DNA from: Candidatus Omnitrophota bacterium
GTDB lineage: Bacteria > Omnitrophota > Gorgyraeia > Zapsychrales > Aceulaceae
DNA: 64,000 nt
Direction of reading: 5' to 3'
Assembly: GCA_029564765.1 (NCBI GenBank)
Contig: JAKQPK010000019.1
Coordinates: forward strand, 27,919-91,918
Made by a program: the position numbers and the translations under genes. This document shows, one piece after another, positions 4,997 through 47,320 of the stretch. The notes beneath the pieces are model-generated. The model worked only from the letters and a program-made list of their open reading frames with translations. It did no database searches and was not told the DNA's origin. Numbering within the stretch: the stretch's first letter is position 1; each line of letters opens with the position of its first letter.

Positions 4997-4997
4997 A

Positions 4998-5459: not shown

Positions 5460-5460
5460 A

Positions 5461-7405: not shown

Positions 7406-7413
7406 AATGTCCT

Positions 7414-20383: not shown

Positions 20384-20415
20384 ACAACCTCCTAAAATTA
20401 ATTGTTACGTATCTC

Positions 20416-21465
20416 TTATGCTTTTAGTTTCTCACGAATAACGCTTGCGCGCTTAACATCCCTCTCCAGCGGGTCAAGCTTCTTGCCTTCGATCTTCTGC
20501 AGATGAGCCGGCTGGATCATAATGAACAACTCGTTCACCGTCTGCTTACTAACATGCTTGATCACGCCGACATCAATCCCTAGACGCACCATCGAAAGCA
20601 GATCAACTGTTTCTTGACTAGAAATGATATGAGCGCTCTTTAAAATGCCGTACGAACGGCTGATCTTATCCTCCAGAACAGAACGGTTTTGGACAAGCAA
20701 GGCCTGCCGTGCCTGCTCTTCCTGCTCAACGATCTGGCGCACCAGACCGTTAATATTCTGCAAAATATCTTCTTCGCTGTGGCCTAAAGAGACCTGATTG
20801 GAGATCTGAAAGAAATTCCCTGTCGCTTGCGTTCCTTCCCCATAAAAACCGCGGGATGTGAAGCTTAATTTCGCAATGGCCTCCAGAACTTTGTTGATCT
20901 GCTTAGTCATCACCAATGCCGGCAAATGCAGCATGACAGAGCCTCGAATACCTGTTCCGGTGTTCGTCGGACATGCCGTTAAATATCCCCAATTCGCATC
21001 ATAAGCGTAAGGGATCTTCGCAGACAAGATATCATCGATCATGTTGATGATCTTCCATGTCTCCCGAAGGTCAAACCCTGACTGCATGACCTGGATCCTC
21101 AGGTGATCTTCTTCGTTGATCATGATGGAAAGGATCTCTTCTTTGGAGATGAGGATCGCTCTTCCTTCGCTGGTCGCGGCATGATCGTGGCTCATCAAAT
21201 GCCTCTCGATAAAGAACTGCTGGTCCAAGGCATCAAGCTCATTGATCTTCAAGAGCATCGCATTTTTGAAATATTCCGAAGAATCAAAGGCAGCCTTTGC
21301 GATCCTTACGATCTCTGCTAGATCTTTTTTATTAGCGCGGGCTGGAAAAGGTATCTTTTCAACGTTTCGAGCCAGGCGGATCCTTGATGACATGACAATA
21401 TGTGATTGAGGACCCGCTCCTTTTAGCCACTCTCCGGTATGCGTGATCAGATCATCGATCTTCAT
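20416..21465 (-). CDS. mcsB: protein arginine kinase McsB
   Basis: ATP:guanido phosphotransferase domain. Position between mcsA and clpC. Confidence 0.85.
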   Translation of the reverse strand: MKIDDLITHTGEWLKGAGPQSHIVMSSRIRLARNVEKIPFPARANKKDLAEIVRIAKAAFDSSEYFKNAMLLKINELDALDQQFFIERHLMSHDHAATSEGRAILISKEEILSIMINEEDHLRIQVMQSGFDLRETWKIINMIDDILSAKIPYAYDANWGYLTACPTNTGTGIRGSVMLHLPALVMTKQINKVLEAIAKLSFTSRGFYGEGTQATGNFFQISNQVSLGHSEEDILQNINGLVRQIVEQEEQARQALLVQNRSVLEDKISRSYGILKSAHIISSQETVDLLSMVRLGIDVGVIKHVSKQTVNELFIMIQPAHLQKIEGKKLDPLERDVKRASVIREKLKA

Positions 21466-28089: not shown

Positions 28090-28129
28090 TAACCAAAAGC
28101 CTGCCAAAGTAAATATTTTTTGGCAGGCT
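28090..28129 (-). terminator. candidate rho-independent terminator after the PNPOx-like gene
   Basis: Inverted repeat AGCCTGCCAAA / TTTGGCAGGCT (28098-28129) followed on the minus transcript by UUUUGGUU. A TATAAT for htpX lies just beyond. Confidence 0.45.
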
Positions 28130-28162: not shown

Positions 28163-28570
28163 TCAGATCTTGATCGCTCTATAATCGTAAGTCGCGTGAT
28201 GAAAAACACGCACATTCTTAGGCTTCATACGCAAAACAACCAGCATGGGATCACTAGGAGTCTCATAAAACTTATGCAAGGACAGGACATTGCTCCATAG
28301 TCTTGCTTTATCCTTAAGCGATGTGCTTAACATACACGGCCCCGCGATTCGCACATGCGCTCCGTCGGGTGCTGCAAAACAATACTCCGCGTACGGGACT
28401 TTTTTAAGGTGGTCGATCTTTTCTTGTCCTTCTTCAATACCGCACCAAAGCTCTTTGCCAGCCCAATAAAGAGCGCGCACAGGACGGACACCGACGCGCT
28501 TGCCATCAGACGTCGCCAGCATTCCAAAAGGAACGCTTTTCATAAATTCCTGTAATTGATAGAATGTCAT
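28163..28570 (-). CDS. pyridoxamine 5'-phosphate oxidase-like FMN-binding split-barrel protein
   Basis: PNPOx-like pattern (VPFGMLATSDGKRVGVRPVRALYW...). Start taken at the ATG (28568-28570) directly after the stop of the upstream small ORF. The ORF track extends to 28630. Confidence 0.5.
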   Translation of the reverse strand: MTFYQLQEFMKSVPFGMLATSDGKRVGVRPVRALYWAGKELWCGIEEGQEKIDHLKKVPYAEYCFAAPDGAHVRIAGPCMLSTSLKDKARLWSNVLSLHKFYETPSDPMLVVLRMKPKNVRVFHHATYDYRAIKI

Positions 28571-28574
28571 ATGA

Positions 28575-28763
28575 CTACTTGCAACAGCAGCTTCCGCCAG
28601 CTGCGGTCCTTTTAACCATGCTGGAAACAATAAAGAAAGCTAGCGCAATAAAAATGACTTGATTGTCCGATGCTGGCAAGACATCAAAAGCTGCTGCCAG
28701 TAAAAGCATAATTCCACAGCCCTGCAGAAGGACTGTGATCGTCTCAACAGGTTTTGCCTTCAT
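28575..28763 (-). CDS. small membrane protein (62 aa, two TM helices, C-terminal CCCK)
   Basis: Strong SD AAGGAGGG 6 nt upstream of the ATG. Its stop abuts the PNPOx-like start. Confidence 0.4.
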   Translation of the reverse strand: MKAKPVETITVLLQGCGIMLLLAAAFDVLPASDNQVIFIALAFFIVSSMVKRTAAGGSCCCK

Positions 28764-28834
28764 AATACCCTCCTTTGTATGAGATTCCCCTTAACGCTAT
28801 TTTTTTAAGATAAAAGATCAAGCTGATCATGCCA

Positions 28835-29596
28835 TCACTTTCTTTTTGCTGAAGCCTGTAAATTTACAAAAAATTTCTGAAAACATAGCACGTGAAAATG
28901 CAAATGCTTTCTCTGGTCCTGTCTTCTGAAAAGAAATCCCTGATCATAAAGTTCAGCTAAAGAAAGTTTGTTGTCTTCTTTTTTAGTCAAGATCCCCTGG
29001 GCAGCTCTATGCATCTGTTGAGCTACCGCTTCTCTGCCTAAGGAAAGAAAGATGTTGGCAAGCTCTTCATACGCGAGATATTCATCTTCCCTGGTGCGGG
29101 TTAAAAAGGACATAAAGTCCTCAAGAACGATCTGCGGACCCATGGCCTCCCGGAAATCATCATTCCGAAGAAAACCTGCATACATGCCCACTGTCTTTGG
29201 TAAAACATCTATGGCTTTCTGTAATAAAAAAATCGCTTTTTCAAATTCCTTTTTCTGACTATAGATCATGCCCTGATCCCAATAATAAGAATACTGATTC
29301 GGATTAATAGTAATTGCTTTATCATACATAGCGATCGCTCGATCAAGATCACCTAAATAATAGTAACAAAATCCTTGGTTAGCATACGCATGATCGAATG
29401 GGCCTAAGGTATCTATAAGCTCTTGATAATACTGAATGCACCACCTTAATTCATATGCAGTAAAATCTTGGTTCTCGTTAATTTTATGAACGATTTCTGC
29501 TTCTAAGCGCTTTTTATATGCAATGGAAGAAAGCTTGGCCACCACTGGCTCTTCTCTGAAGAAAACAAAGAAAATCATTAAAACCAGCAAATACAT
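28835..29596 (-). CDS. TPR-repeat protein with N-terminal membrane anchor
   Basis: TPR-like repeats (YYYLGDLDRAIAMYDKAITINPNQ...) after a TM segment. Start ambiguous: ATG at 29674 lacks an SD, ATG at 29596 has a weak GGTGG. Confidence 0.55.
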   Translation of the reverse strand: MYLLVLMIFFVFFREEPVVAKLSSIAYKKRLEAEIVHKINENQDFTAYELRWCIQYYQELIDTLGPFDHAYANQGFCYYYLGDLDRAIAMYDKAITINPNQYSYYWDQGMIYSQKKEFEKAIFLLQKAIDVLPKTVGMYAGFLRNDDFREAMGPQIVLEDFMSFLTRTREDEYLAYEELANIFLSLGREAVAQQMHRAAQGILTKKEDNKLSLAELYDQGFLFRRQDQRKHLHFHVLCFQKFFVNLQASAKRK

Positions 29597-29622
29597 AACA
29601 ATCCACCGATGGCAGAAATGTT

Positions 29623-31845
29623 TCACGGTGCTGTCTCCTTGTTTCGGTGGACTAAAAGAAATATAAGATAGCATAGGAAACCCACATGCATACTAAGAAT
29701 GAAAAAATAGAAAGCTTGCCCTCCAAAAGGCTTGTAATCGAAAATCACCACATTTTCACCAGCAGGCAGAAAGATCCCTTTAAAAGCTAAATTAGCCCTA
29801 TAAAGAGCGACTGCCTTGCCGTTAACGCTTGCCCTCCATCCAGGCTGAAAACTATCTGTATAGACCAAAAACTTATGTTGAAGAAAATGTGTCCGTATTT
29901 TGATCGTATTAACACTAAAAGAAAGTATGTCAAATTGCTCTGAAGGCCCTGTGATGGCAGCTGTGAGGTCCCTCTTTAATGATGTGTCCGAGCTCAAGGA
30001 TAGTTTTCGTAAGCCTTCTTCGCTATTATTGCTTTCTGCGGAAATAAAAGCAAGATTGGTCAGGCTGGGAAATTTGCTTGCCTGTTGAAAATAAAATGAA
30101 TCATCGCTCACAAAACGAATATGATCATAAAGATGAAACTTATATTTTGTATATTGACTTACGGTATGCAAAGGAAAATGCTTCTTAAGATCATAAGACC
30201 ATTTCGGAGGGTATCCTGCCGCTGTCAGAGGAAATCCGGACGCGTCTTTCATTTGGATATATGCGCGATGCGCATCATAAACATCAAAATCCTCCACAAG
30301 CTCAGGACGAGTAAATGAAAACATGGGACTTGTCGACGGATAAGAACAATTTTGAATGATCCTATCCTTGTTAACATCCATATGCTCTAAAGCCTCATGG
30401 AGCTTCCAAAAGACCTCTACAGGCTGGACAACAACACCTGCGATCAGCAGCAAGAACCATATCGGCTTGTAGGAAAGTTTTCCAAGGACAACAAGGCTAA
30501 AAAATAAAGCGCTCAGCAATATCGCGACATGCGTTGTTGCGATCATTGGCTGTCTTCTTAAAAGAAGCCAAATGCCAAGATGAACAAAAAATACCACAGC
30601 TAAACCCCTATAGCGTGGCATGTCCATCTTTTGTTTTAAAATAAATTTCAGTTGCATTGCCATGAAGAGGATCAGCAGCGGACCTATGATCCCATAAAAC
30701 GATCCTACGCCATGGATCATCTTAAAGAATGGAAAATAATAAAAGAAAGATTTGCACAGCGGAGTCTGATCCCCTAAGGCAACAAAAAACAGTACCGTGG
30801 TCAGCAAGAACAAGATAAAGGATTTACGTGTGATACATACCCAAGAGCCGAGAGCCAAAACACAAAAAACAAAGATGGAAAGATAGCGAGGGCCAAAACA
30901 GACCGAGAGATCATCAAGACGAAAGAACATCTGACGAAAAGTTGTTTGGGCCGTCACGCATAAGGCCGCGATCTTTTCATATGCAACATTAATACCGCCC
31001 TGGTAAACATCGTCCCCGGCTATCTTGCGGTCCAAAGCCAGAACATCCCCCGCGCGCATGATGCTATAACCTTTCAGAGAAACTGCCGCGGCTAACCCCA
31101 AAGCTAAACAACAAACGATAACCAAGCGCCAACGATGCTTAAGGAAAAGCCTGATCGCCCGCGCGTTACTAGCCAATTTTTCACGATAAAATACGCAATA
31201 AAGAAAACACACCAGAAAGAAGACAGTCCACCAATAAAAAGGCAAATAGCATCCTACAATGATCATCATCGTAAAAACAAGGCCGACAAAAAAACGCTTT
31301 TCAAAGGATTGCCAGAACCGGACAAGAAAATAAAAGAACCACGCCATGGGCACGCCGATAAAAACGCTGTTGGGACTATTAAAAATGATCATGCTGGTAA
31401 AAGAAAAAAGAGAAACCAGAAATGCTATGTAAGCGACCAGGTTGTCTTTGAGAATAGCTTTAGCAAGGTAATAGAACCCGATCTGGCCAATAAAAAAATA
31501 CCCTAAATAAGTCCACAAAAATGCGAAATAAAAACTAATTCCTATCTTCTGAAAAATAAGGATCAGAAGCCACATCGGGTTAAATGGCCCGAAATATTGG
31601 AATTCTGCAAGCGTTGGAAATCCCCAGAACAAAAAAGGGGTCCAAAGCGCGAAAACACCCTGTGCCAAATTATCTGTAAAAAATTTAACCGTCGCATAAA
31701 AACTACAAGTATCGCCAACGATGGTGATCCTGCCAAGAACGATCGGATAAAAAAGGATGAGCCAAAGGCCAAAAGGAAGAATAAATTTAAGAAAAGAGAC
31801 TCTTAAAAAAAAGAAATGAATGATATGGCGGAGAAAAGAAGACAT
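29623..31845 (-). CDS. large polytopic membrane protein, GT-C fold glycosyltransferase-like (YfhO/ArnT/PMT-like)
   Basis: 740 aa with ~13 N-terminal TM helices followed by a ~250-aa soluble C-terminal domain. This architecture is typical of GT-C (lipid-linked sugar donor) glycosyltransferases. Confidence 0.55.
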   Translation of the reverse strand: MSSFLRHIIHFFFLRVSFLKFILPFGLWLILFYPIVLGRITIVGDTCSFYATVKFFTDNLAQGVFALWTPFLFWGFPTLAEFQYFGPFNPMWLLILIFQKIGISFYFAFLWTYLGYFFIGQIGFYYLAKAILKDNLVAYIAFLVSLFSFTSMIIFNSPNSVFIGVPMAWFFYFLVRFWQSFEKRFFVGLVFTMMIIVGCYLPFYWWTVFFLVCFLYCVFYREKLASNARAIRLFLKHRWRLVIVCCLALGLAAAVSLKGYSIMRAGDVLALDRKIAGDDVYQGGINVAYEKIAALCVTAQTTFRQMFFRLDDLSVCFGPRYLSIFVFCVLALGSWVCITRKSFILFLLTTVLFFVALGDQTPLCKSFFYYFPFFKMIHGVGSFYGIIGPLLILFMAMQLKFILKQKMDMPRYRGLAVVFFVHLGIWLLLRRQPMIATTHVAILLSALFFSLVVLGKLSYKPIWFLLLIAGVVVQPVEVFWKLHEALEHMDVNKDRIIQNCSYPSTSPMFSFTRPELVEDFDVYDAHRAYIQMKDASGFPLTAAGYPPKWSYDLKKHFPLHTVSQYTKYKFHLYDHIRFVSDDSFYFQQASKFPSLTNLAFISAESNNSEEGLRKLSLSSDTSLKRDLTAAITGPSEQFDILSFSVNTIKIRTHFLQHKFLVYTDSFQPGWRASVNGKAVALYRANLAFKGIFLPAGENVVIFDYKPFGGQAFYFFILSMHVGFLCYLIFLLVHRNKETAP

Positions 31846-31873
31846 GCTTGACGCCTCTGAGATTTCTGTGTTG

Positions 31874-32797
31874 CTATTTTTGCTCTACAAAATCCATCGT
31901 GGCAGCCGCGATCTTATTGGCAGAAAGCCCGTAACAATCTTTTAGGGATTCATAATCCGCGTAGGCAACACAAAACTGATCGTTGATCCCTAACCGTTTT
32001 AAGATCGCCTCATCGTGGCTTTGTGCCAACACTTCCGCGACGGCGCTTCCCAGCCCTCCAATAACACTATGATTCTCGATGGTAATAATTTTCTTTGTTT
32101 CACGCGCAGCTTTTAAGATCTGCTTATCGTCAAGGGGCTTAATCGTGTGGAAATTAAGCAAGCGAACAGAGAGGCCTTCCGCGCTTAATTTTTTTACCGC
32201 CATCAAAGCATCCCAAACCAGATCGCCTGTAGCCATAAGTGTCACATCATAGCCTTCCTGCAAGACAACTGCCTTACCGAGCTCGAAAGAATGATCGCCC
32301 TCATAAACAACATGCTCTTTATTTGTTCCTAGCCTTAGATACACCGGCCCTTGAAGGTGGGCGGCAAGTTCCGTTGCCTTACGTGTTTCTTTGGCATCTG
32401 CTGGCGAAAGGATCGTGATATTTGGTAAGACGCGCATAAGCGCTAAGTCTTCGATCGCATGGTGCGTTGGGCCTAGCGTAGAATATTTAAGGCCTGCGCC
32501 AATGCCGACGATCTTGACATTCATCTGCTGCAAGCAAATATCGTTGCGGATCTGTTCATAAGCCCGCATGACAAGAAATGGGATGATCGTATAAATAAAT
32601 GGAATGGCCCCGCACGAAGCCATTCCGGCCGCGACACTTGTCATCGTAGCTTCCGCAATGCCAAAATTCACAAAATTACGCGCAAAATCTCGACGATAAT
32701 CGTCAAAAACAATAGCGCCATTATCCCCTACCATGGAATAGATTTTGGGGTTTTCTTTTGTGAGCTTTGTAATAGTTTCAATATAGGCGGTTCTCAT
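31874..32797 (-). CDS. transketolase, C-terminal subunit (pyrimidine-binding + C-terminal domains)
   Basis: Matches the transketolase Pyr and C-terminal domains. 4-nt overlap with the N-terminal subunit gene. Confidence 0.85.
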   Translation of the reverse strand: MRTAYIETITKLTKENPKIYSMVGDNGAIVFDDYRRDFARNFVNFGIAEATMTSVAAGMASCGAIPFIYTIIPFLVMRAYEQIRNDICLQQMNVKIVGIGAGLKYSTLGPTHHAIEDLALMRVLPNITILSPADAKETRKATELAAHLQGPVYLRLGTNKEHVVYEGDHSFELGKAVVLQEGYDVTLMATGDLVWDALMAVKKLSAEGLSVRLLNFHTIKPLDDKQILKAARETKKIITIENHSVIGGLGSAVAEVLAQSHDEAILKRLGINDQFCVAYADYESLKDCYGLSANKIAAATMDFVEQK

Positions 32798-33627
32798 AAA
32801 CTTTTGAGGTCTTCTTCGGATAATTGCAGGTCTTTTAGCGCGATCTTCAGCTCTTCGGTATTCGGCATGCGATAATGCCAGATCGGCGCATTTTCCATAA
32901 AAGAAATCCCCTTGCCTTTTACAGTATGCGCGATGACCATGCTGGGCTTGCCTTTTTTAAATGGAACTTTCTTAAGCGCGCAAGAAATATCTTCTGTATC
33001 ATGTCCGTTCACCTCGACAACCTCCCAGCCAAATGCTTTCCATTTGTCCGCCAAAGGTGACAGGCTGCCGACATTATCTAGAAAATCAATGGCCTGCAAT
33101 TTATTATAATCAGTAATCGCGACCAAATTATCTAACTTATGTTGAGCCGCGAAAATAGCTGCCTCCCAAACACTTCCCTCTTGGCACTCCCCATCCCCTA
33201 AAAGGCAATAGACCTTATAATCTTTTTGATCTTGCTTACCGGCAAAAGCAATGCCCGCGCCATAAGGAAACCCATGCCCTAAAGACCCTGTCGAAGCATC
33301 AACGCCAGGCACCTTGACCATGTCCGGATGCCCGCCGAGGGGGCTTCCTAAATGACACGCAGAGGCCAACAGTTTGCGGTCAAAAAAACCTTTCATAGCT
33401 AACACAGAAAAAAGCGCAACGCCTGCGTGGCCCTTGCTGAGGATGAACCTGTCGCGGTCTTGCGCATGAGGATCTTGCGGATCAACACGAAGAAATCGAA
33501 AATAAAGGACAACAAGGATCTCCGCGATAGAAAGGCTTGAGGGTATATGCCCTCCTCCTGCCCAATAAATGGTCTTGAAAATAAGTTGGCGCAATTCCTG
33601 CGCACGTTGAGCTAGCTCGTTGGTCAT
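32794..33627 (-). CDS. transketolase, N-terminal subunit (ThDP-binding)
   Basis: ThDP-binding motif GDGECQEGSVWEA and a GH motif. Split two-gene arrangement. Confidence 0.85.
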   Translation of the reverse strand: MTNELAQRAQELRQLIFKTIYWAGGGHIPSSLSIAEILVVLYFRFLRVDPQDPHAQDRDRFILSKGHAGVALFSVLAMKGFFDRKLLASACHLGSPLGGHPDMVKVPGVDASTGSLGHGFPYGAGIAFAGKQDQKDYKVYCLLGDGECQEGSVWEAAIFAAQHKLDNLVAITDYNKLQAIDFLDNVGSLSPLADKWKAFGWEVVEVNGHDTEDISCALKKVPFKKGKPSMVIAHTVKGKGISFMENAPIWHYRMPNTEELKIALKDLQLSEEDLKSL

Positions 33628-33631
33628 TTCT

Positions 33632-35200
33632 TTATGAATTTTTCGCGATCATAAAACCAACGCCGCCGAACAGCGAGCGTTTTGTCCAATCCCACACAAG
33701 ATACAACGGCATCAAATACCGTAAAACCGGAAAAATCCTTTCATACGGGGGCTTGCCGTACAACAAGAAACCTTGCGCGACAAGTTTATTGTTTTCCTCT
33801 AAAGAATTCTTCAAAAGATGCTTCACGCGAGCAGTAAATAAAGGGCGCACAAGCTCTTGCAAAAGCGATGTTTTGATCAACTGAATTTCTTTAAAGTCAG
33901 AAAATAAATCTACAAGCTCTTGGGTCGAATAGCGACGGTAATGTCCCATCGCGCGGTCCCAATCATTATACAATGCCTTACCTAAAACTGTTGTGCAAAT
34001 TATTATCCCATCTTTCTTTAAAAGTGCACGCATATTACGCAGCAATATTTTATCATCTGGCACATGCTCAAGAAGGCCGTTGCAAACGATCATGTCCCAC
34101 TTGCGATCGACAATCGCTACCTGCTTTTCATCTAAAATATCCAAAGATAGAACCTCTATCTTGCGGTTATCTGCAAAATATTCCTTGGAAAAATCAAGAG
34201 CCGCTGGCAAGTTATCCAGCAGCGTTCCTTTTGGATAATCATCTTCTTTTAAATATTTAAAAATAGATTCCAGGCCAGGACCGACCTCAAGGACGCCTTG
34301 AGGTTGATACTTTCGCACTAAGGTTATTTCGACAAGATATTCAATATACCGATATAAACTGCAGGGTTTCTTAGGAACCAGAAAATCGCGCCCCAAGATC
34401 ATAATATCTTTTAATGAAACAAAAGGTGATCGGCAAGAATTCATAATGTTCATGCTGCTATTAGCGATGCGTTTAACTGGAAAATGGTCATACTGCCTGC
34501 GGTTCTTGATCTCAACATCCCAAAAAAGACGCATCAAGGTCGCGCACACTTTAATGATGTTCTTGATTTTAAACGCCTTTGTCTTTCGTTCCCCTGGACT
34601 TTTGATACAGATCGGTACCTCGATGAAACTGTGCCCCAAACGGATCAATCTTACAAGCAGAGTCGACATAAAAGCAAAATCCTTGCATGTCAGATCAACG
34701 CCTTTCAAGAGTTCTCGTCGATGGATGGCGGGTCCCGTGTAATAACGCAAACCGCAACGAAAGGCCATGTTCAAAACAAAAACGTAGAGCTTAGAAATGA
34801 TCTGGCGCGAAAACGGGCGCACGTTGACATTGGTCGTAAAAGGAACAACGATATCTGCTTTTCCGACGTAGCGGAATATTTCCGTGATACTCTTTTCTTC
34901 GTGCTCGTTATCTCCGGGGAGGATACACACGTAACCCATGCGCGCCATAGGAACGCCACAGCTAAACGCATATCCAAAGCCTTGATTCCTTTCGTTGTGG
35001 ACGGCAATGATCTTTGGATTCTCTTGGGATAACTGATCGATCAACTGTGGCGTGGCATCCGTACTCTTATCATCAAAAATAATGATCTCATAATCATCGA
35101 ACTGATTGCTCTGAATAGCCGACAAAGCAACTTGAACTGTGCCTGCGATATTCTTTTCTTCATTATAGGCCGCGATGATAACAGAAATCGTTTTAGACAT
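33632..35200 (-). CDS. bifunctional GT2 glycosyltransferase / class I SAM-dependent methyltransferase fusion
   Basis: N-terminal GT-A (ISVIIAAYNEEKNI...DDKSTD) domain of ~260 aa. C-terminal methyltransferase motif I VLEVGPGLES and post-I acidic LDxxD. Confidence 0.7.
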   Translation of the reverse strand: MSKTISVIIAAYNEEKNIAGTVQVALSAIQSNQFDDYEIIIFDDKSTDATPQLIDQLSQENPKIIAVHNERNQGFGYAFSCGVPMARMGYVCILPGDNEHEEKSITEIFRYVGKADIVVPFTTNVNVRPFSRQIISKLYVFVLNMAFRCGLRYYTGPAIHRRELLKGVDLTCKDFAFMSTLLVRLIRLGHSFIEVPICIKSPGERKTKAFKIKNIIKVCATLMRLFWDVEIKNRRQYDHFPVKRIANSSMNIMNSCRSPFVSLKDIMILGRDFLVPKKPCSLYRYIEYLVEITLVRKYQPQGVLEVGPGLESIFKYLKEDDYPKGTLLDNLPAALDFSKEYFADNRKIEVLSLDILDEKQVAIVDRKWDMIVCNGLLEHVPDDKILLRNMRALLKKDGIIICTTVLGKALYNDWDRAMGHYRRYSTQELVDLFSDFKEIQLIKTSLLQELVRPLFTARVKHLLKNSLEENNKLVAQGFLLYGKPPYERIFPVLRYLMPLYLVWDWTKRSLFGGVGFMIAKNS

Positions 35201-35202
35201 AT

Positions 35203-36627
35203 TTACCCTAACAATCGTCGAAAATTCTTAAGGCTGAACCAGATCATTTTTAAAAAGTCCTTACGCTCAGCCCGCACATAGACCAGAAAATACATAAAAC
35301 CGAACCATAGTTTAAATAAAATATTAGGCTTCATGTGGATCAACTTCTTAATAAACGGAAAAGTCCAGGGCAACAAAACAGCCGTCTGAAAAAATTTCTG
35401 CAAATTTTCCAGTTCGCGGATATGCGGATGCCGTGTCAGATTGGATGCGGCAAAAAAAGAACTCGCAAGACAATCAATGTTGTAATCTGCCGGCAAAAGC
35501 CCGCTTTCGATCGCCTGCTGTGTAAGTTTTGTTCCAGGAAACGGCATGAACACCGCACACCATGGAAAATCTGTTTTAATATCAATGTTAAACTGTACCG
35601 TTGTCAATGCCTGAGAAAGGGTCTCTCCCGGCAGACCTAAGATATTGAACGTCCGAAACGGAATACCCGCTTTATGCAGGGACTCAGCAGCCAAAAGGAT
35701 ATGATTGTTACTCACATTCTTTTTTAAGACTTCATTCCTTAAAGATTCGTCACCGGATTCAATGCCGAAAGAGACCATCTTGCATCCGCTTTGCGCGAGA
35801 AGCGCGGCATACTCTGCGTTCTTGGCTAAAACATCCGCGCGCACTAAACAAAAAAATGGCAATCCCACCTTGCTGCTGTATTCGCTTAAGAATTCTTTCT
35901 GCCAAGACATATTAAGGCCAAAGACATCGTCGGAAAAGAAAATGATCTTTGTTCTGTATTTATCACGTAGCTCTTGGCATTCTTCGATAACGCTTGCGAC
36001 ATTCCGGAATCGCACATATTTTCCTTTGTCGCGATAGATCTCGCGCATTGCCTCATTAAAACAAAATGTACATTGATAAGGACAACCGCGAGACGTGATC
36101 ACATGCCGCACGCTAAAATCGATCTTTTTTTCTAGTATCTGATACAGTTCTCTATCCGGCGCTGGGTATCGATCAAGATCTTCTGATAGAGCGCGGACAT
36201 CGTTACGGTAGATCTGCCCATTTTCTTTGACCCAAAGATTTCTGATCGAGCAAGGATCTGTCTTTTTATCAAAACAGTTCAATAGTTCCAGGATCGCGTC
36301 TTCGCCTTCACCTCGAATGACAATATCGACGCCATCTTTTTCAATGAGATCGGGAAAATGTGTCGGATGAGGCCCTCCAAAGATACTTTTGATGCTATAT
36401 TCGGCCTTGATCGCCCGCGCCATTTCCAAAGCCCAAAGATGACTTCCACTCATGACGGAAAACGCGATAAAATCAGGCTGGAAATCTTTTATGGATGCTT
36501 GAAAATCCGTCAACGTTGCGCCTATGGATAAACGAACTTCATGTCCATTCTTTTTCAGATAGGACGAAATACACGCGGGCCCTAAAAACTCAAATTCCAG
36601 GTCTTGTAAGAAAAGAAGTCGTGCCAT
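35203..36627 (-). CDS. B12-binding radical SAM enzyme (class B rSAM, putative C-methyltransferase)
   Basis: N-terminal cobalamin-binding Rossmann-like domain and radical SAM cluster motif RGCPYQCTFC. Confidence 0.8.
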   Translation of the reverse strand: MARLLFLQDLEFEFLGPACISSYLKKNGHEVRLSIGATLTDFQASIKDFQPDFIAFSVMSGSHLWALEMARAIKAEYSIKSIFGGPHPTHFPDLIEKDGVDIVIRGEGEDAILELLNCFDKKTDPCSIRNLWVKENGQIYRNDVRALSEDLDRYPAPDRELYQILEKKIDFSVRHVITSRGCPYQCTFCFNEAMREIYRDKGKYVRFRNVASVIEECQELRDKYRTKIIFFSDDVFGLNMSWQKEFLSEYSSKVGLPFFCLVRADVLAKNAEYAALLAQSGCKMVSFGIESGDESLRNEVLKKNVSNNHILLAAESLHKAGIPFRTFNILGLPGETLSQALTTVQFNIDIKTDFPWCAVFMPFPGTKLTQQAIESGLLPADYNIDCLASSFFAASNLTRHPHIRELENLQKFFQTAVLLPWTFPFIKKLIHMKPNILFKLWFGFMYFLVYVRAERKDFLKMIWFSLKNFRRLLG

Positions 36628-36634
36628 AAGGGTA

Positions 36635-37702
36635 TTAAATAAAGTTGACGTGGGCCGAAGGATTCTTCAATTCCCACAAATATCGATTCACTTCATCCAT
36701 GCGGCAATTGACACGGCAACGGCAGGGATGAAGATTTTTTTTAGCCCAAAGGAGAGATCTTTTTCGTCGGCTCCCCTCCCAGATCTGCTGGAATGTTTTT
36801 TGATAAAGATTACCGTAATAAAATTTTGGGTTTCCTAAGAAAACGCTGCATCCCCACACATCGCCTCCGGCATCAACATAAGACCAAAACGGAAGACCCA
36901 GGCATCGTTCATAGGCAGGCCTGGATTCATCCCATTTTTGCATGGTGTTCAGTCGAAAGATGGTAGAAAAAGAAGATGAGTTCAATCCCTGCAGGTCTTT
37001 CTTAAGTTTTTCGTAAGGCTGATACTTGATCGCCTGATAACGCTTCGTAATACTCTGCGGATGCTGTGAATAAGGTTTGATAACAAGATAGTCCATGCCA
37101 ATTTTTCTTGCTTTTTTAGCAAGCAACAACACTTCTCTGGCGTTGTCCGGGAGCAAAACCATCTGCATGCCTAGCGTACAGGAAAATCCTTTATCTTTAC
37201 GCAAAGCTGCTGCATAACTCATATTCTGGATCACCATATCAAAGTCTTTTTCCGGGCATCGATGGATCTTGGCATACGTTTCTTTCGCGCCTGCGTTGAT
37301 GCTGACCTTGATCCACGTGCACGAGCGCAGAAGGTCAGATGCAACTTCTTTTTTTAACAGAACACCATTTGTTGTTAGCGCTGCATCGATACCACAGGCT
37401 CTTGTCTTCTGGACAATGCTCACAATATCCTTGTGCAACAAAGGCTCCCCTTCTCCTGCGTACATAATGCTTTTGAGGCCTAAGCGTCCGAACTCTGTTA
37501 AACGTTTTAAGAAAATACTTGTATCTAAATATCGTGGTTGATACTTCATAAAATCCAACCCGCAATAAACACATCGATGATTGCAAGCGCCTGACGGACT
37601 AGCTTCCATATAGAGAGGATAAATATTCTTTCCTTTTACCCAATCCGAAACTCTCTGCGGATGATATAAAAGCTTATGACTATCGATACGGTACTTATCC
37701 AT
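36635..37702 (-). CDS. radical SAM enzyme with Cys-rich C-terminal (SPASM/twitch-like) extension
   Basis: CNHRCVYC (CxxxCxxC) motif. C-terminal Cys cluster GGDVWGC...HPCRCRVNC. ATG at 37700-37702 chosen (the ORF track extends 60 codons upstream into the GT9 gene). Confidence 0.7.
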   Translation of the reverse strand: MDKYRIDSHKLLYHPQRVSDWVKGKNIYPLYMEASPSGACNHRCVYCGLDFMKYQPRYLDTSIFLKRLTEFGRLGLKSIMYAGEGEPLLHKDIVSIVQKTRACGIDAALTTNGVLLKKEVASDLLRSCTWIKVSINAGAKETYAKIHRCPEKDFDMVIQNMSYAAALRKDKGFSCTLGMQMVLLPDNAREVLLLAKKARKIGMDYLVIKPYSQHPQSITKRYQAIKYQPYEKLKKDLQGLNSSSFSTIFRLNTMQKWDESRPAYERCLGLPFWSYVDAGGDVWGCSVFLGNPKFYYGNLYQKTFQQIWEGSRRKRSLLWAKKNLHPCRCRVNCRMDEVNRYLWELKNPSAHVNFI

Positions 37703-38633
37703 AAAGCTCCTTGTACAGCCGACGGCAATATTGTTCAACAGTTTTAGGCAATATCTCTTCCATGCAGGGTTTTTTATATTGGCAAACCGGCAAGAAACAA
37801 GGTCTGCATGGACATGTCGAAGGTGACAAAATAATATGCGTTCCTGGAACCCCCGCCATACGCCTGTGGTTCGTTGGGCCAAAAAGTGTAACCGCAGGCT
37901 TGCCGAGAGCCTGAGCGATGATCTGGCCCAATGAATCAGATGTAGCGATCATCCGACAGCTGTCGATCCAGCGGATATACTGATGCAAATTCTTATGCCC
38001 TTGCTGCCAGCTGATCTTAAAATCTTTTTTAAGCCGACACTCAAGATCTTTCCAGTTTTTCATAGGCCAACCTTTTGTTGGCCACTTGGAGCCGACCGCA
38101 TAATTAAGTCCAATATCATATATTTCCTTACTGCGCTTCCTTGGCCTTAAAATAGGCCCTCGTCCTGTCCAGCTTCTTCCTACCGCCCTGCAAAGAATTT
38201 GAGCTGTGTTACCCGTCATCTTGTGATGATTTTCTTGACCGGCAAGCAAAAGGCGCGTAGGTGAACGATAAACCGCAATATCTTGCGATTGGTCGTTAAA
38301 ATAAAATCCGTATTTCTTTTTTGCCTTCACATCTTGAAGAAAGGCGCAGATCCCAATATCTTTTTCAAGGTTGATAAAGATATCATAATGTTTGCGCATG
38401 ATGGGACCGAGTGCCTTACTCCCAAAGACAACAAGGCGCTTGATACAGGGATTATTCTCAAGAAGCTCCTTGGCTGCGGCTGATACGACCCATGTCACTT
38501 CATCATCTTTATAAAGATGTAAAAGGGTCGTACAAAAGAGAACATCACCGAGGCTGACAACGGTCGAAACACCTCTATCGAGGAATTCTGAAAACCCTGT
38601 CTTAATAATAAGTATTTTCTTGTGTTTTTTCAT
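37695..38633 (-). CDS. glycosyltransferase family 9 (heptosyltransferase-like)
   Basis: ILIIKTGFSEFLDRGV...GDVLFCTTLL N-terminal GT9 signature, GT-B fold. C-terminal CPCRPC motif. ATGA overlap with the upstream rSAM stop. Confidence 0.75.
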   Translation of the reverse strand: MKKHKKILIIKTGFSEFLDRGVSTVVSLGDVLFCTTLLHLYKDDEVTWVVSAAAKELLENNPCIKRLVVFGSKALGPIMRKHYDIFINLEKDIGICAFLQDVKAKKKYGFYFNDQSQDIAVYRSPTRLLLAGQENHHKMTGNTAQILCRAVGRSWTGRGPILRPRKRSKEIYDIGLNYAVGSKWPTKGWPMKNWKDLECRLKKDFKISWQQGHKNLHQYIRWIDSCRMIATSDSLGQIIAQALGKPAVTLFGPTNHRRMAGVPGTHIILSPSTCPCRPCFLPVCQYKKPCMEEILPKTVEQYCRRLYKELYG

Positions 38634-39535
38634 AAAAAACGAATATCCACAGAACAATAACCATCTTCCTGAAGATGGTTTGTCTTGATCTTAATATCGC
38701 AGGGGCTACATAAACCATACGACGCGCAGTCGCGATAATCGTGCTCGATTCTCAAGTCTGGGTCAAGCAAATTGCCGATCGCCAGATCATCCCGCTTGGC
38801 ATAGAGGTCCGCGTGACAACGATAGATCGTTCCTTCTGGTGAGATTGGCAGAACAGTATTCTTGCACTGCACACTTTTGCCAACATTCTTTCCACAGCAG
38901 GCATCAGAATATCTATACTGACCATAAAGCTTCCCTTGCCATGAACCTAAAAAGGCTTTTGTGCGAAACTCCACGCCTTGGCTTTTAGCATACGCGCCGA
39001 TTTCTTGTGTGAGCTCAGGATAACCAGGATGTTCAATGTGAAAAAGTCCGATCGACAAGATCTTCTGCAGGTCTTTAATGCGATCGATCAAGTTTTTGTA
39101 GTCGTTCTGCCCATTATGAAAACTTACGCGGATCGTTGGATAAGGCGCTGGTCGCTTGTTCCACTCAAGAGTTCTTAATTTCAAAAATCGTTCCGGGGTC
39201 ACATGAGCTGGTAAGGCCGTCAAGATATCGATCTTCTGGTGAACATTTTCTAGAATTTCCCATATTCCTTGATGTAAAAAAGGCTCTCCGCCCTGCAAGG
39301 TAACAGGAACCCCGCTCGGGAGGTTGAGACGATCTAAAGCCTGGATCCACTGGGCAGCGCTTAACTCATCAGAAATTTTAAGGTTATGATTAATATAATT
39401 ATTTATATAATTTGTAATGCAATAAGGACAGGCAAGAAAACAACGACGGGTTAAATAAACGCCCACATAATCTGTTTCTGAAGGGACTTCGACCTTAGGT
39501 AAATCTTTGTGAGTGAATGGTTTAGATAATGCCAT
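38630..39535 (-). CDS. radical SAM enzyme with C-terminal auxiliary-cluster (twitch-like) Cys motifs
   Basis: CFLACPYC CxxxCxxC motif. C-terminal CC...C...C...CSPC cysteines. ~300 aa, comparable in size to BtrN/anSME-type carbohydrate-oxidising rSAMs. Confidence 0.7.
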   Translation of the reverse strand: MALSKPFTHKDLPKVEVPSETDYVGVYLTRRCFLACPYCITNYINNYINHNLKISDELSAAQWIQALDRLNLPSGVPVTLQGGEPFLHQGIWEILENVHQKIDILTALPAHVTPERFLKLRTLEWNKRPAPYPTIRVSFHNGQNDYKNLIDRIKDLQKILSIGLFHIEHPGYPELTQEIGAYAKSQGVEFRTKAFLGSWQGKLYGQYRYSDACCGKNVGKSVQCKNTVLPISPEGTIYRCHADLYAKRDDLAIGNLLDPDLRIEHDYRDCASYGLCSPCDIKIKTNHLQEDGYCSVDIRFL

Positions 39536-39554
39536 AAAAACCTTGAGTGTGATT

Positions 39555-39583
39555 ATTATACATTATCTAAAAAAGTTCTCCAA
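39555..39583 (-). promoter_or_regulatory. candidate promoter of the rSAM/glycan operon (TTGGAG-N17-TATAAT)
   Basis: Minus-strand reading TTGGAG AACTTTTTTAGATAATG TATAAT, ~22 nt upstream of the first rSAM ATG. AT-rich 110-bp intergenic after the sulP stop. Confidence 0.35.
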
Positions 39584-39646
39584 TAAATATTCTAAAGAGC
39601 TGACCATCGCTAATCGAGATCTATAAAAAGATCAGAAACAGAAAAA

Positions 39647-45219: not shown

Positions 45220-45983
45220 AGTCCTCGCTGTGAGGTTTGCACAAAATGTAAAAGATGCTCGATCTCAGGAGTGGAGGAAATTTGACTCTTGATCTCTTCG
45301 ACAGCTTTTGTCTTGGTCAATTGCGAGAAAAACAATATCTTGAACGCCTGTTTTAGCAAACGTACTGTGTCTGGTTTGAATCCGGAACGTTTAAGGCCAA
45401 CCAGGTTCAGCCCGTAAACGCGCGCCGGATGCCCATCGCAAGTCGAAAAAGGCGGAATGTCCTGAACGACCTTGGAGCAGCCTCCAACGATCGAAAATCG
45501 GCCAAGCCGAACGAACTGGTGGATAGCCGTCAGTCCACCGATCACAACATAGTCCTCTAAGGTAACGTGTCCTGCCAAGGTCCCCACATTAGCCAGCGTG
45601 CAGTGATCGCCAACAACACAATCATGGGCCACGTGAGAATATGCCATAAAAAGATTATGATCACCGATCTTTGTCTTTCCACCGTCCCCTGTGCCAGGAT
45701 TCATCGTAACATACTCGCGAATGATGTTGTACTCCCCGATCTCAAGATACGTTTTTTCATCTTTTTTAAATTTTTTGTCCTGCGGAATGCTTCCGATAAC
45801 AGCACCAGTAAACACTTCACAGCCCTTGCCGATCGATGTGCGTCCTTCGATGACGCAATGAGACCCGATCTTGACCTCAGAAGCCAAGATGACATCCTCT
45901 CCGATAACAGTATATGGACCGATAACGACATCTTTGGCAATATCTGTCTTAGGATGGACTACAGCTGTCGAATGGATACTCAT
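45210..45983 (-). CDS. lpxA: acyl-ACP:UDP-GlcNAc O-acyltransferase
   Basis: Hexapeptide-repeat left-handed beta-helix plus C-terminal helical domain. Operon position. Confidence 0.9.
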   Translation of the reverse strand: MSIHSTAVVHPKTDIAKDVVIGPYTVIGEDVILASEVKIGSHCVIEGRTSIGKGCEVFTGAVIGSIPQDKKFKKDEKTYLEIGEYNIIREYVTMNPGTGDGGKTKIGDHNLFMAYSHVAHDCVVGDHCTLANVGTLAGHVTLEDYVVIGGLTAIHQFVRLGRFSIVGGCSKVVQDIPPFSTCDGHPARVYGLNLVGLKRSGFKPDTVRLLKQAFKILFFSQLTKTKAVEEIKSQISSTPEIEHLLHFVQTSQRGLCS

Positions 45984-47320
45984 GATGACCCCTGCAAATA
46001 AGCAACATCCGTGAACGAAAACATCAGGTCAGCTTCTACGACGACCTTGTCATCGACCTTAGCGACACCTTTTACTTGGGCGATGCGCGATTTACACTTT
46101 AAGACGTCAACCTCAAAGACCAACTGATCCCCCGGCTCAACAACTTTACGGAACTTGACATTATCGATCGCCATGAACAAGGCAAGTTTATCTTTATTCT
46201 CAATATCCGTCAAAACAGCGATCCCGCCGACCTGCGCCATGGCCTCAACCATAAGCACGCCAGGCATGACAGGCTTGTCTGGAAAATGCCCTTGAAAAAA
46301 AGATTCATTAGCCGTGACATTCTTGATCGCAACGGCACGCTTTCCAGGCTGAAGATCAATGACCCGATCGACCAACAAGAAAGGATAACGATGAGGCAAT
46401 ATCTTGCGGATCCCTGTAATATCAATAGCGGTCTTTGTCGCGTAGTCATGTCCTCGCGGCGTGAACTTCTTTTCATATTTCTCGTGCTGCGCGACGATCT
46501 TCTGCAATAGCTTACGATTAAGACGATGGCCGCTCTTTACACCCAACACATGTCCGCGAACAGGCCTGCCCAGAAGGTACAGGTCACCAATAAAATCTAA
46601 AACCTTATGCCGGGCAAACTCATCTGAAAAACGTACCTTATTGTCCTTGACACCCTTATCCGTAATGACGAGCGTGTTTGTCAGGTCAGCTCCCTTTCCT
46701 AAACCCTGACTTTTCAAGGCTTGGGCTTCTGATTCCAAGCAGAATGTGCGTGAGGGCGCGATCTCCTTGCGAAAACTTTCCAGTGTGATCGCTTGGCTAA
46801 AAAATTGCGCGCCAAGACCAGGGTGAGGATAGCTCAAAAGATAGGACACCTTAAAATCTGATGCGGGTGTTATCAAAAGCGAAGAATCATTTTCTTCAAG
46901 ATAGATCGGTTCGTGAATGTCGATGAATTGCCGTTGGGCATCTTGCGGGGCTAAGCCACCCTTGGAAAGAATATCATAATAATCTTGCCCGCTGCCATCA
47001 AGGCCTGGAAGCTCTGGTCCGTTGATCTCAATGACCAGGTTATCTATCTCCAGTCCGCATAATACGGCCATCACGTGCTCAACGGTATGGACAACCGCAT
47101 CCCCTTTGGCCAAGGACGTGCACCGCGACAAGGCCTGGTCCTGGACGACATTTTGATACTCCGCTTTCACGCACGGATGATTCGGCAGGTCAACGCGAAC
47201 AAAACAAATACCGCTATTCACCGCGGCAGGCTTAAAAACGACCTTGGTTTCCTGACCAAGATGAAGCCCTTTTCCCTGAGCGCAAACTTCTTTATGAATG
47301 GTCTTTTGCTGAATGTTCAT
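45980..47320 (-). CDS. lpxC: bifunctional UDP-3-O-acyl-GlcNAc deacetylase / 3-hydroxyacyl-ACP dehydratase (LpxC-FabZ fusion)
   Basis: N-terminal LpxC domain (~280 aa) fused to C-terminal FabZ hot-dog domain (LPHRYPFLLVDRV...GHFP). Confidence 0.9.
   Translation of the reverse strand: MNIQQKTIHKEVCAQGKGLHLGQETKVVFKPAAVNSGICFVRVDLPNHPCVKAEYQNVVQDQALSRCTSLAKGDAVVHTVEHVMAVLCGLEIDNLVIEINGPELPGLDGSGQDYYDILSKGGLAPQDAQRQFIDIHEPIYLEENDSSLLITPASDFKVSYLLSYPHPGLGAQFFSQAITLESFRKEIAPSRTFCLESEAQALKSQGLGKGADLTNTLVITDKGVKDNKVRFSDEFARHKVLDFIGDLYLLGRPVRGHVLGVKSGHRLNRKLLQKIVAQHEKYEKKFTPRGHDYATKTAIDITGIRKILPHRYPFLLVDRVIDLQPGKRAVAIKNVTANESFFQGHFPDKPVMPGVLMVEAMAQVGGIAVLTDIENKDKLALFMAIDNVKFRKVVEPGDQLVFEVDVLKCKSRIAQVKGVAKVDDKVVVEADLMFSFTDVAYLQGSS

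Follow-up and report, generated by a model that had tools for sequence, protein, structure and literature searches.

What do three radical S-adenosylmethionine (SAM) enzymes, a split transketolase-like enzyme, glycosyltransferases of three different folds and a tetratricopeptide-repeat (TPR) protein produce when they are encoded in a single block of genes, and where does the product go? This question is raised by a stretch of 64,000 nucleotides from a Candidatus Omnitrophota bacterium (contig JAKQPK010000019.1, positions 27,919–91,918), referred to here as the window, in whose numbering all coordinates are given. The window contains an operon of approximately 11 kb, a co-directional block on the minus strand that runs from 39,535 to about 28,160. 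Its genes are, in order, g1, encoding a compact radical-SAM enzyme (R1); g2, a glycosyltransferase of family GT9; g3, a radical-SAM/SPASM enzyme; g4, a radical-SAM enzyme with a B12-binding domain; g5, a fusion of a GT2 glycosyltransferase and a methyltransferase; g6 and g7, the two subunits (TK-N and TK-C) of the transketolase-like enzyme; g8, a glycosyltransferase of the GT-C fold; and g9, the TPR protein. Very probably, the operon encodes some glycan synthesis-and-transfer pathway. The model developed below is narrower and stands at about even chances: an anaerobic pathway would make a two-carbon-branched or chain-extended, methylated sugar, which would be attached to the cell envelope.

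The listing of open reading frames (ORFs) was compared with genes called independently on a Logan contig of 98% identity (L071), and the boundaries agree. R1 and g2 overlap by 4 nt (ATGA), and g2 and g3 by 8 nt. Gaps of 7, 2 and 4 nt separate g3 from g4, g4 from g5 and g5 from g6, respectively, and g6 and g7 overlap by 4 nt. A 28-nt gap precedes g8, which shares a 4-nt overlap (GTGA) with g9, and the GTG start codon of g9 is equipped with a Shine-Dalgarno sequence (AAGGAG). Two small genes follow, a 62-residue ORF after 71 nt and a PNPOx-like gene after a further 31 nt. A preliminary description of the operon had given all junctions as overlaps or gaps of at most 7 nt; of the first eight junctions, seven conform and that between g7 and g8 does not, nor do those of the last two genes. 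Its domain assignments were reproduced by a Pfam scan, in which all the named domains scored above their gathering scores with the exception of YfhO, and the three glycosyltransferase folds that it had recognized, GT-B/GT9, GT-A/GT2 and GT-C, are real.

The composition of related loci provides the first clue to function. R1 is the signature gene of a cluster family, and species-representative genomes were scanned with an R1 alignment, giving 65 loci (63 non-redundant) in which ORFs were called heuristically and clustered. All 65 matches come from metagenome-assembled genomes (MAGs) and none from a cultured organism. The hosts include Omnitrophota, Planctomycetota (Phycisphaerae, Sedimentisphaerales and Pirellulales), Kiritimatiellia, Victivallales, Fibrobacter, Geobacteraceae/Desulfuromonadaceae, other Deltaproteobacteria, Dependentiae and Pacearchaeota. 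The R1 and GT9 genes are directly adjacent in 35 of the 63 non-redundant loci and lie no more than 9 kb apart in 16 more. After this pair, an orthologue of g3 (at least 45% identity) is found in 15 loci and a GalE-like epimerase/dehydratase of the short-chain dehydrogenase/reductase (SDR) type in 22, and the two never occur together (Fisher p = 5.8e-4). The next position shows a similar alternation: the split transketolase, represented by TK-N, is present in 25 loci and the α and β subunits of pyruvate-dehydrogenase E1 in 17, with both in a single locus (p = 1.9e-4). Since the radical-SAM/SPASM enzyme and the SDR are mutually exclusive, they would be equivalent, and g3 is proposed to be the anaerobic counterpart of the SDR that occupies the same position in sister clusters.

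These genes are followed by a variable tail, which comprises a 220-residue class-I methyltransferase (19 loci), B12-binding radical-SAM enzymes (24), TylC3-like zinc C-methyltransferases (9) and YerE-like enzymes dependent on thiamine diphosphate (ThDP; 8), together with additional radical-SAM/SPASM enzymes, alcohol dehydrogenases, APH-type kinases, DegT and class I/II aminotransferases, a cupin and RmlD-like reductases. A PseB/CapD-type dehydratase gene lies directly upstream of R1 in four loci. Judged from these predicted functions, the tail speaks the vocabulary of nucleotide-sugar tailoring. The preliminary description had favored a sugar or glycoconjugate over a ribosomally synthesized and post-translationally modified peptide (RiPP) as the product, and the related loci bear this out, as they carry nucleotide-sugar genes (SDR, PseB/CapD, DegT, TylC3-like and YerE-like). 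No precursor-peptide ORF was found in the 111-nt leader of the operon or between its coupled genes, and no conserved small ORF was seen beside R1 across the 63 loci. The expected co-conservation was confirmed in part: R1, GT9, the radical-SAM/SPASM enzyme and the split transketolase recur together across phyla and are the only widely co-conserved members, whereas GT2, GT-C and TPR genes occur in a subset of loci from Omnitrophota and Planctomycetales-labelled MAGs. The operon is thus made up of a conserved module and a lineage-specific module. The preliminary description had not recognized the gene combination from any characterized cluster, and no characterized cluster, paper or curated family that matches this gene set was found in the literature or by the NCBIfam scan.

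R1 (38,630–39,535, minus strand, as are all genes of the operon) has 301 residues. Pfam Radical_SAM (PF04055) scores above its gathering score for R1, g3 and g4, which places all three in the radical-SAM superfamily. In R1, the three cysteines of the CX3CX2C motif (C32, C36 and C39) are invariant, and the R1 model superposes on radical-SAM cores. Its C-terminal cysteine cluster is twitch-like, and both R1 and g3 carry the Cys-rich C-terminal region that defines the SPASM/twitch subclass with its auxiliary Fe-S domain. R1 has hundreds of homologues at 55–91% identity, which are named only by generic radical-SAM labels. The family is small: of 1.84 billion sequences that each represent one cluster at 50% identity, 77 match at E ≤ 1e-30 and 267 at E ≤ 1e-10. 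No curated NCBIfam model exists for R1, and R1, g2, g3, g4 and g8 all lack an NCBIfam match near a family cut-off.

The second radical-SAM enzyme, g3 (36,635–37,702; 355 residues), scores 70.8 bits for Radical_SAM and 26.6 bits for SPASM, and its nearest solved sequences are BlsE, MoaA, SpeY (PDB 7wzv) and DesII. The third, g4 (35,203–36,627; 474 residues), scores 66.8 bits for the B12-binding domain and 81.5 bits for Radical_SAM, both above the gathering scores. The ORF cluster to which it belongs is the one present in 24 related loci. Its best solved relative is the 1,2-diol dehydratase AprD4 (E 2e-16), followed by MgmA (PDB 9ccb), CysS, OxsB and TokK, of which MgmA, CysS and TokK are methylases. 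Accordingly, the B12-dependent C-methylation put forward in the preliminary description retains both of its domains but becomes one option only, and g4 may be either a C-methylase or an AprD4-like dehydratase. A hopanoid or ladderane lipid pathway was also considered for g4, because HpnJ and a lipid B12 radical-SAM enzyme were its top NCBIfam names; it was rejected, as the scores reach 102–105 bits against cut-offs of 360–578 and no cyclase or lipid genes are present.

Immediately downstream of R1, g2 (37,695–38,633; 312 residues) is a GT-B glycosyltransferase that belongs to family GT9, with a score of 42.2 bits for Pfam Glyco_transf_9 (PF01075) against a gathering score of 22. Its family profile matches the GT9 structure 3tov (E 2.6e-15), WaaF and WaaC. 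Invariant positions in the g2 alignment are the LGD motif (D30), the G-x-K-W-P-x-K motif (G181, K183, W184 and P185) and four cysteines (C274, C279, C284 and C290). The cysteines form a C-terminal tail, C-x4-C-x4-C-x5-C (37,695–37,830), which is absent from 3tov. This tail may be a metal or Fe-S site and may be relevant to the partnership with the radical-SAM enzyme. Membership in the family is not matched at the equivalog level: against the NCBIfam equivalogs for lipopolysaccharide (LPS) heptosyltransferases I, II and III (WaaC, WaaF and WaaQ), g2 scores 16–28 bits, the cut-offs being 135–569.

The link between R1 and glycosyl transfer is reinforced by natural fusions. R1-like domains are joined to TPR, GT9 and CgeB-like glycosyltransferase domains, with or without a methyltransferase, in P0337, P0347 and P0371, and to GT1 and GT9 domains in P0365. 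These four proteins contain 1100–1740 residues and one or two GT9 domains, and they appear to be single-chain versions of the R1/GT9 gene pair. Other R1-like domains are fused to GT2 (P0272, P0378 and P0382), to class-I methyltransferases (six proteins), to a GFO/IDH/MocA sugar dehydrogenase (P0373) and to a B12-binding radical-SAM enzyme (P0374). The partner domain in P0292 most resembles the half of HldE that acts as heptose-1-phosphate adenylyltransferase (TIGR02199, E 2e-32, below the cut-off). Collectively, the fusions link R1 to glycosyl transfer and, possibly, to ADP-heptose. A gene for an RfaE-domain-II-like adenylyltransferase was found neither in any fetched locus nor in the window, and ADP-heptose as the substrate of R1 is a lead that comes from the GT9 membership of g2 and from this one fusion protein. 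No report of a GT9 enzyme paired or fused with a radical-SAM enzyme was found in the literature.

The transketolase-like enzyme is divided between g6 (32,794–33,627), the N-terminal subunit with the ThDP-binding PP domain, and g7 (31,874–32,797), the C-terminal subunit with the Pyr and C domains. g6 scores 157.8 bits for Pfam Transketolase_N and 296.7 bits for the NCBIfam transketolase model NF004559, and its ThDP motif, GDG...N, can be read directly in the sequence. The scores of g6 and g7 for NF004559 sum to 520 bits against a cut-off of 488, and g7 matches the C-terminal chain of the split transketolase of Carboxydothermus (PDB 6yaj) with 243 bits. Yet, a difference is present in the active-site region, where the 6yaj segment ATHAGLTVGEDGASHQ corresponds to GIGAGLKYSTLGPTHH in g7. 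The Carboxydothermus enzyme and human transketolase have H-x-G...G-E-D-G, whereas g7 has G-A-G...S-T-L-G, so that a histidine is replaced by glycine and an aspartate by leucine. We take these positions to be His461 and Asp469 of E. coli transketolase. In canonical transketolases, these two residues bind the substrate (sugar) phosphate and the C2 hydroxyl. The same histidine and aspartate are also missing from 13 cluster-linked g7 orthologues, i.e., those of at least 38% identity whose motif was retrieved, one of which has a glutamate at the adjacent position. Because the equivalents of His461 and Asp469 are Gly and Leu, g6/g7 is classed by its sequence as transketolase-like rather than as a transketolase, in spite of its domains and ThDP motif. 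With both residues lost, a different acceptor is therefore predicted. The preliminary assignment to transketolase stands as regards the domains and the ThDP motif, but the enzyme is not a canonical one.

The lineage-specific module begins with g5 (33,632–35,200), which combines a GT2 domain (residues ~1–235) with a class-I SAM methyltransferase domain (~290–440). Pfam Glycos_transf_2 scores 86.5 bits, and Methyltransf_23, _12 and _11 match the second domain. Over residues 2–232, the GT2 domain can be aligned to a dolichol-phosphate mannose synthase (5mlz); ArnC and the GtrB-like protein sll0501 are further matches. g8 (29,623–31,845; 740 residues) is a polytopic protein with a transmembrane (TM) bundle (residues 1–485), a periplasmic β-rich domain (~560–705) and a final TM helix (710–734). 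Fold comparison confirms that it has the GT-C fold and places it in the GT-C/YfhO group as a distant relative of YfhO, for which its Pfam score of 26.7 bits falls just short of the gathering score of 28.5. A sequence search of the PDB, profile included, returned no match for g8. g9 (28,835–29,626; 263 residues from GTG 29,626) is a membrane-anchored protein with an N-terminal hydrophobic segment and Pfam TPR_1/TPR_2 repeats. The GC content over g8–g9 is 0.41, compared with 0.45–0.48 in most other parts of the window.

Pairing of g8 and g9 is not unique to the window. GT-C/TPR gene pairs recur in the Aceula locus L001 and twice in L009, and a natural fusion of a g8-family YfhO-like protein with TPR repeats is known (P0249, 1065 residues). 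The GT2 ORF cluster is present in six loci, with the GT2::methyltransferase fusion in the window and in L006. Proteins like g8 are encoded in L001, L006, L009, L021, L028 and L033. A longer relative of 908–957 residues occurs in L013, L016 and L017, for which the match to g8 was checked in the L016 member only (C-terminal, 27% over 110 residues). In total, GT2, GT-C and TPR genes are joined to the tailoring block in the window and at least seven other loci. Two variants of this module were observed. L009, which is labelled Planctomycetales and whose R1 is 68% identical to that of the window, has two consecutive GT-C/TPR pairs directly upstream of R1 (3649–9900), which suggests two acceptor specificities for one sugar pathway. 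In L013 and L016, the long YfhO-like protein is followed by a protein resembling flavin amine oxidases and UDP-galactopyranose mutase (~15.6–19.7 kb in L016), and this pair replaces the GT2/GT-C/TPR set.

Taken together, the pathway could proceed as follows. A common nucleotide sugar, for which UDP-N-acetylhexosamine and ADP-heptose are candidates, would serve as the substrate. By analogy with the NAD-dependent SDR of sister clusters, g3 would generate a carbonyl or otherwise activate a sugar carbon. With ThDP, g6/g7 would then add a two-carbon (dihydroxyethyl/glycolyl) unit to the carbonyl, where the E1 α/β subunits of sister clusters would add acetyl, and the sugar would thereby gain a two-carbon branch or a longer chain. 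g4 may contribute C-methylation or deoxygenation, and the methyltransferase domain of g5 may contribute O- or N-methylation. A radical step by R1 on the nucleotide sugar and a sugar transfer by the GT9 enzyme on the cytoplasmic side may make up the invariant part of the chemistry. As suggested by fold and family, the GT2 domain of g5 would load the finished sugar on polyprenyl phosphate and, after flipping, g8 with g9 would hand it over to an acceptor in the periplasm or the outer membrane. The TPR partner and the TPR fusions make a protein somewhat more probable as this acceptor than LPS, which stays a candidate on account of the Arn-like logic and the GT9 membership. The model draws on the tight translational coupling, the alignment of the GT2 domain to dolichol-phosphate mannose synthase and ArnC, the GT-C/TPR pairing, the two alternations seen after the R1–GT9 pair, the sugar genes of sister loci, the residue changes in g7, the R1 fusions, and the precedents for ThDP-dependent branching and for YfhO-type transfer.

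Several observations weigh against this model. The operon has no nucleotidyltransferase, 4,6-dehydratase or recognizable flippase family, which leaves the start of the pathway and the flipping step unaccounted for; the sole flippase candidate is the non-conserved 62-residue ORF. g5 lacks a TM helix (hydropathy maximum 1.49 against a threshold of 1.6), unlike GtrB, ArnC and CsbB. A transfer carried out by GT2 and GT-C would leave the GT9 enzyme without an explained role. Ketones are not the usual acceptors of transketolases, which normally act on aldehydes. The structures nearest to R1 include peptide-modifying and sugar-modifying enzymes at equal distance, the sugar enzymes DesII and BlsE scoring almost level with peptide maturases. 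The displacement statistics (p = 5.8e-4 and 1.9e-4) ignore phylogeny, and four loci combine the SDR with a distant radical-SAM/SPASM enzyme (25–29% identity). Finally, all relatives are MAGs, and the proposal is known from genes alone.

Among the alternatives, the one that survives best, while unlikely, is a pathway directed at LPS. A heptose would be modified and installed by the GT9 enzyme on the Kdo/lipid A inner core in the cytoplasm, and GT2 and GT-C would add an Arn-like periplasmic decoration to lipid A or the core. The GT9 membership of g2, with the catalytic LGD and K-W-P motifs common to WaaC and WaaF, fits this proposal, as do the fusion of an R1-like domain to an RfaE-domain-II-like adenylyltransferase in P0292 and the position of lpxD, lpxC-fabZ, lpxA and lpxI about 5 kb from the operon. 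However, the lpx neighborhood is confined to close relatives, and L001 has different flanks; the proximity of lpx and bamA, taken in the preliminary description as a hint of an LPS acceptor, is therefore a lineage-specific feature and was set aside. The low equivalog scores of g2 point away from an LPS heptosyltransferase, and no gmhA-, hldE- or gmhB-like gene is present in any fetched locus. R1 relatives also occur in Pacearchaeota, archaea without LPS, and it is transferases acting on proteins that more typically have TPR partners or TPR fusions.

Decidedly unlikely for the window is glycosylation of a protein in the cytoplasm, in which a secreted protein, flagellin or another, would receive the special sugar from the GT9 enzyme before its export, much as with the TibC/AAH heptosyltransferases or FlmG. 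Elsewhere in the family, this idea is attractive. In the Pirellulales locus L036 (1–9212), the cluster is immediately preceded by flgK- and flgL-like genes and by TPR-glycosyltransferases (TPR-GT4, a short GT9-like protein and GT2-TPR), which suggests a flagellin glycosylation island. L029 (Sedimentisphaerales) and L037 (Phycisphaerae) may be arranged likewise, to judge from shared ORF clusters alone, the ORFs themselves being unscanned. A locus in a deltaproteobacterial MAG carries flgM, neuB and a CMP-transferase gene, giant TPR-GT9-GT-(methyltransferase)-R1 fusion proteins exist, and the invariant four-cysteine tail of g2 has an analogue in TibC, namely its Cys4 iron finger. TibC itself, however, is not among the sequence matches of the GT9 profile. 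No flagellar genes appear in the Pfam lists from matching contigs that cover ~55 kb of the 64-kb window, and the genes coupled to the cluster here encode a GT-C enzyme and a TPR protein with a membrane anchor, which by family analogy act outside the cytoplasm. Flagellin or cytoplasmic glycosylation is thus well supported for L036 and the deltaproteobacterial locus and unsupported for the window.

The proposal that radical-SAM and ThDP enzymes make a secreted small molecule, such as an aminoglycoside-, nucleoside- or cyclitol-like glycoside, is very unlikely. Antibiotic enzymes (BlsE, DesII, AprD4, BtrN, SpeY and AbmM) are indeed among the nearest solved relatives of g3, g4 and R1, and ThDP-dependent two-carbon branching is best known from antibiotics. 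Against this, the operon has no scaffold-forming enzyme, resistance gene or exporter, the GT-C enzyme with its TPR partner points to an envelope acceptor, the cluster is surrounded by housekeeping genes, and the family is spread over many small-genome uncultured lineages. It is hardly credible that the split transketolase is a housekeeping pentose-phosphate enzyme that happens to lie in a glycan operon: the summed NF004559 score and the match of g7 to a characterized split transketolase agree with this, but TK-N is found with R1 in 25 or 26 loci of different phyla, where E1 α/β is its alternative, the examined cluster-linked orthologues have lost two substrate-binding residues to replacement, and the gene is joined on both sides by 4-nt coupling. 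Equally remote is a RiPP-like maturation, in which R1 and/or g3 would cross-link or epimerize a peptide that is then glycosylated, given that no conserved small ORF accompanies R1 in 63 loci, that the 62-residue ORF is a two-helix membrane protein found in close relatives only, that nucleotide-sugar enzymes are the neighbors, and that DesII and BlsE score nearly as high as peptide maturases.

An envelope-directed sugar pathway remains the preferred account, and it has a bolder form with a small but real chance of being right. R1 would be the founder of a new radical-SAM family, complexed with a metal-binding GT9 enzyme on an ADP- or UDP-activated sugar; the re-tooled transketolase would give unseen C8–C9 branched or chain-extended sugars; and GT-C/TPR would attach them to envelope proteins. 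If true, this would be a new oxygen-sensitive protein-glycosylation system of Omnitrophota, Planctomycetota, other lineages of the Planctomycetes–Verrucomicrobia–Chlamydiae (PVC) group and Geobacteraceae, re-used for flagellin in the flagellar-linked loci.

In general terms, nucleotide-sugar tailoring and lipid-carrier glycosylation are of a known kind. New elements, for which no description was found, are the R1 family, the R1–GT9 coupling, the substitutions of a radical-SAM enzyme for an SDR and of a transketolase for E1, and the GT-C/TPR pairing in Omnitrophota. Branched or higher-carbon sugars are otherwise made with NAD-dependent dehydratases, to which the pathway would add a radical route rich in cofactors (three radical-SAM enzymes, ThDP and possibly B12). 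As a compact family coupled or fused to GT9, R1 is a clear target for radical-SAM enzymology. The apparent non-orthologous displacement of an SDR by a radical-SAM enzyme and of E1 α/β by a transketolase-like enzyme could help to predict the chemistry. Unknown glycan clusters as such are common in metagenomes. Omnitrophota are uncultured, often host-associated nanobacteria, and their surface glycans may mediate cell–cell contact.

A promoter-like site, TGGAGA-16-TATAAT (39,555–39,582, minus strand), was found by a consensus scan with 10 of 12 matches in the 111-nt gap 5' of R1 and is putative. At the other end, a 12-bp hairpin (28,098–28,129) that closes the co-directional block is terminator-like by a pattern scan match only. 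Between g9 and this hairpin lie the two small genes. The 62-residue ORF (28,575–28,763, minus strand) is preceded by a Shine-Dalgarno sequence (AAGGAGG), was also called as a gene in L071 and encodes a two-helix membrane protein that ends in ...GGSCCCK. The PNPOx-like flavoprotein gene (28,163–28,570, minus strand) encodes 126–135 residues depending on the start codon (28,570 or 28,543) and scores 35.5 bits for Pyrid_ox_like and 34.9 bits for PNPOx_N. Among the fetched loci, the former is confined to two close relatives, L071 and L006, and the latter to L071, the L006 locus ending short of this point. Both had been listed among the genes of the operon in the preliminary description; with this distribution, the PNPOx-like gene was dropped from the core model and the CCCK ORF was dropped as a candidate precursor peptide. 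The ORF could instead be a flippase subunit or an accessory protein of the lipid carrier.

The operon is flanked upstream by housekeeping genes for ribosomal proteins, DnaB, BamA, Skp, LpxD, an LpxC-FabZ fusion, LpxA, LpxI, a Na/Ala symporter and SulP, and downstream by genes for HtpX, LexA, a class-II aminoacyl-tRNA synthetase, a MacB/FtsX-type ABC transporter, McsB and a Clp ATPase. In the row lpxD, lpxC-fabZ, lpxA, lpxI, LpxC is fused to a FabZ/FabA-type dehydratase in one protein of 446 residues (45,980–47,320, minus strand). LpxI is part of this row, and an LpxH-family gene was not found in the annotated parts of the window. Genes for a McsB-like protein arginine kinase (ATP-gua_Ptrans domain), a UVR-domain protein and a ClpC-type ATPase are grouped at 17,960–21,465 on the minus strand, an arrangement best known from Firmicutes. 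At its high-coordinate end (61,927–64,000, minus strand), the window enters a very large gene, which on the matching contig (L074, 1–747) encodes an unannotated product of 2823 residues.

Comparison with characterized systems defines what the operon shares with them and where it departs. Nearest to g3, g4 and R1, by sequence or fold, are the twitch dehydrogenases BtrN and SpeY together with DesII, BlsE and AprD4, and R1 has a twitch-like auxiliary cysteine cluster. The split-gene transketolase of Carboxydothermus hydrogenoformans (PDB 6yaj and 6yak) has the same two-subunit architecture as g6/g7, with an intact ThDP motif in both, and differs by the change from HAG...GEDG to GAG...STLG in g7. 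For the ThDP enzymes YerE, AviB1/AviB2 and Pau11/Pau12, the addition of a two-carbon branch to a keto sugar linked to a nucleotide has been documented or proposed (PMC4753412, PMC9306805). As in these octose pathways (yersiniose for YerE; eurekanate and paulomycose for AviB1/AviB2 and Pau11/Pau12), a ThDP enzyme is encoded in the operon among nucleotide-sugar tailoring genes, and the sister loci have exactly the E1 α/β and/or YerE-like types. In the operon, however, the ThDP enzyme is split and transketolase-like, so that the donor unit would be glycolaldehyde-derived rather than acetyl. A 4,6-dehydratase was not found in the window, a radical-SAM/SPASM enzyme being in its place, and the branched product is a prediction.

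A GT2 enzyme, a lipid carrier and a YfhO-type GT-C enzyme constitute an established mechanism, in which the carrier is loaded, flipped and used for transfer on the outside (PMC5836110, PMC8035078). The operon resembles such three-component systems (CsbB/GtcA/YfhO for lipoteichoic acid, ArnC/ArnE-F/ArnT for lipid A and Ppm1/Pmt) in its GT2 domain, which is like dolichol-phosphate mannose synthase and ArnC, and in its GT-C enzyme with a large extracytoplasmic domain. It differs in having no recognized flippase, a GT2 enzyme that lacks TM helices and is fused to a methyltransferase, and a GT-C enzyme that is a sub-threshold relative of YfhO with a dedicated, sometimes fused TPR partner. Moreover, the host is a Gram-negative-type member of the Omnitrophota, and the sugar would come from the attached radical-SAM/ThDP tailoring block. 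The protein heptosyltransferase TibC has a Cys4 iron finger (PMC4358343). g2 shares the GT-B/GT9 motifs, including the catalytic aspartate of LGD, with the GT9 heptosyltransferases that act on LPS (WaaC and WaaF) or on autotransporters (TibC and AAH). Its Cys4 motif is also located near the C-terminus, but with another spacing (C-x4-C-x4-C-x5-C) and at the very end of the chain; the likeness to the iron finger is one of analogy. g2 also differs from these heptosyltransferases in being obligatorily paired or fused with a radical-SAM enzyme.

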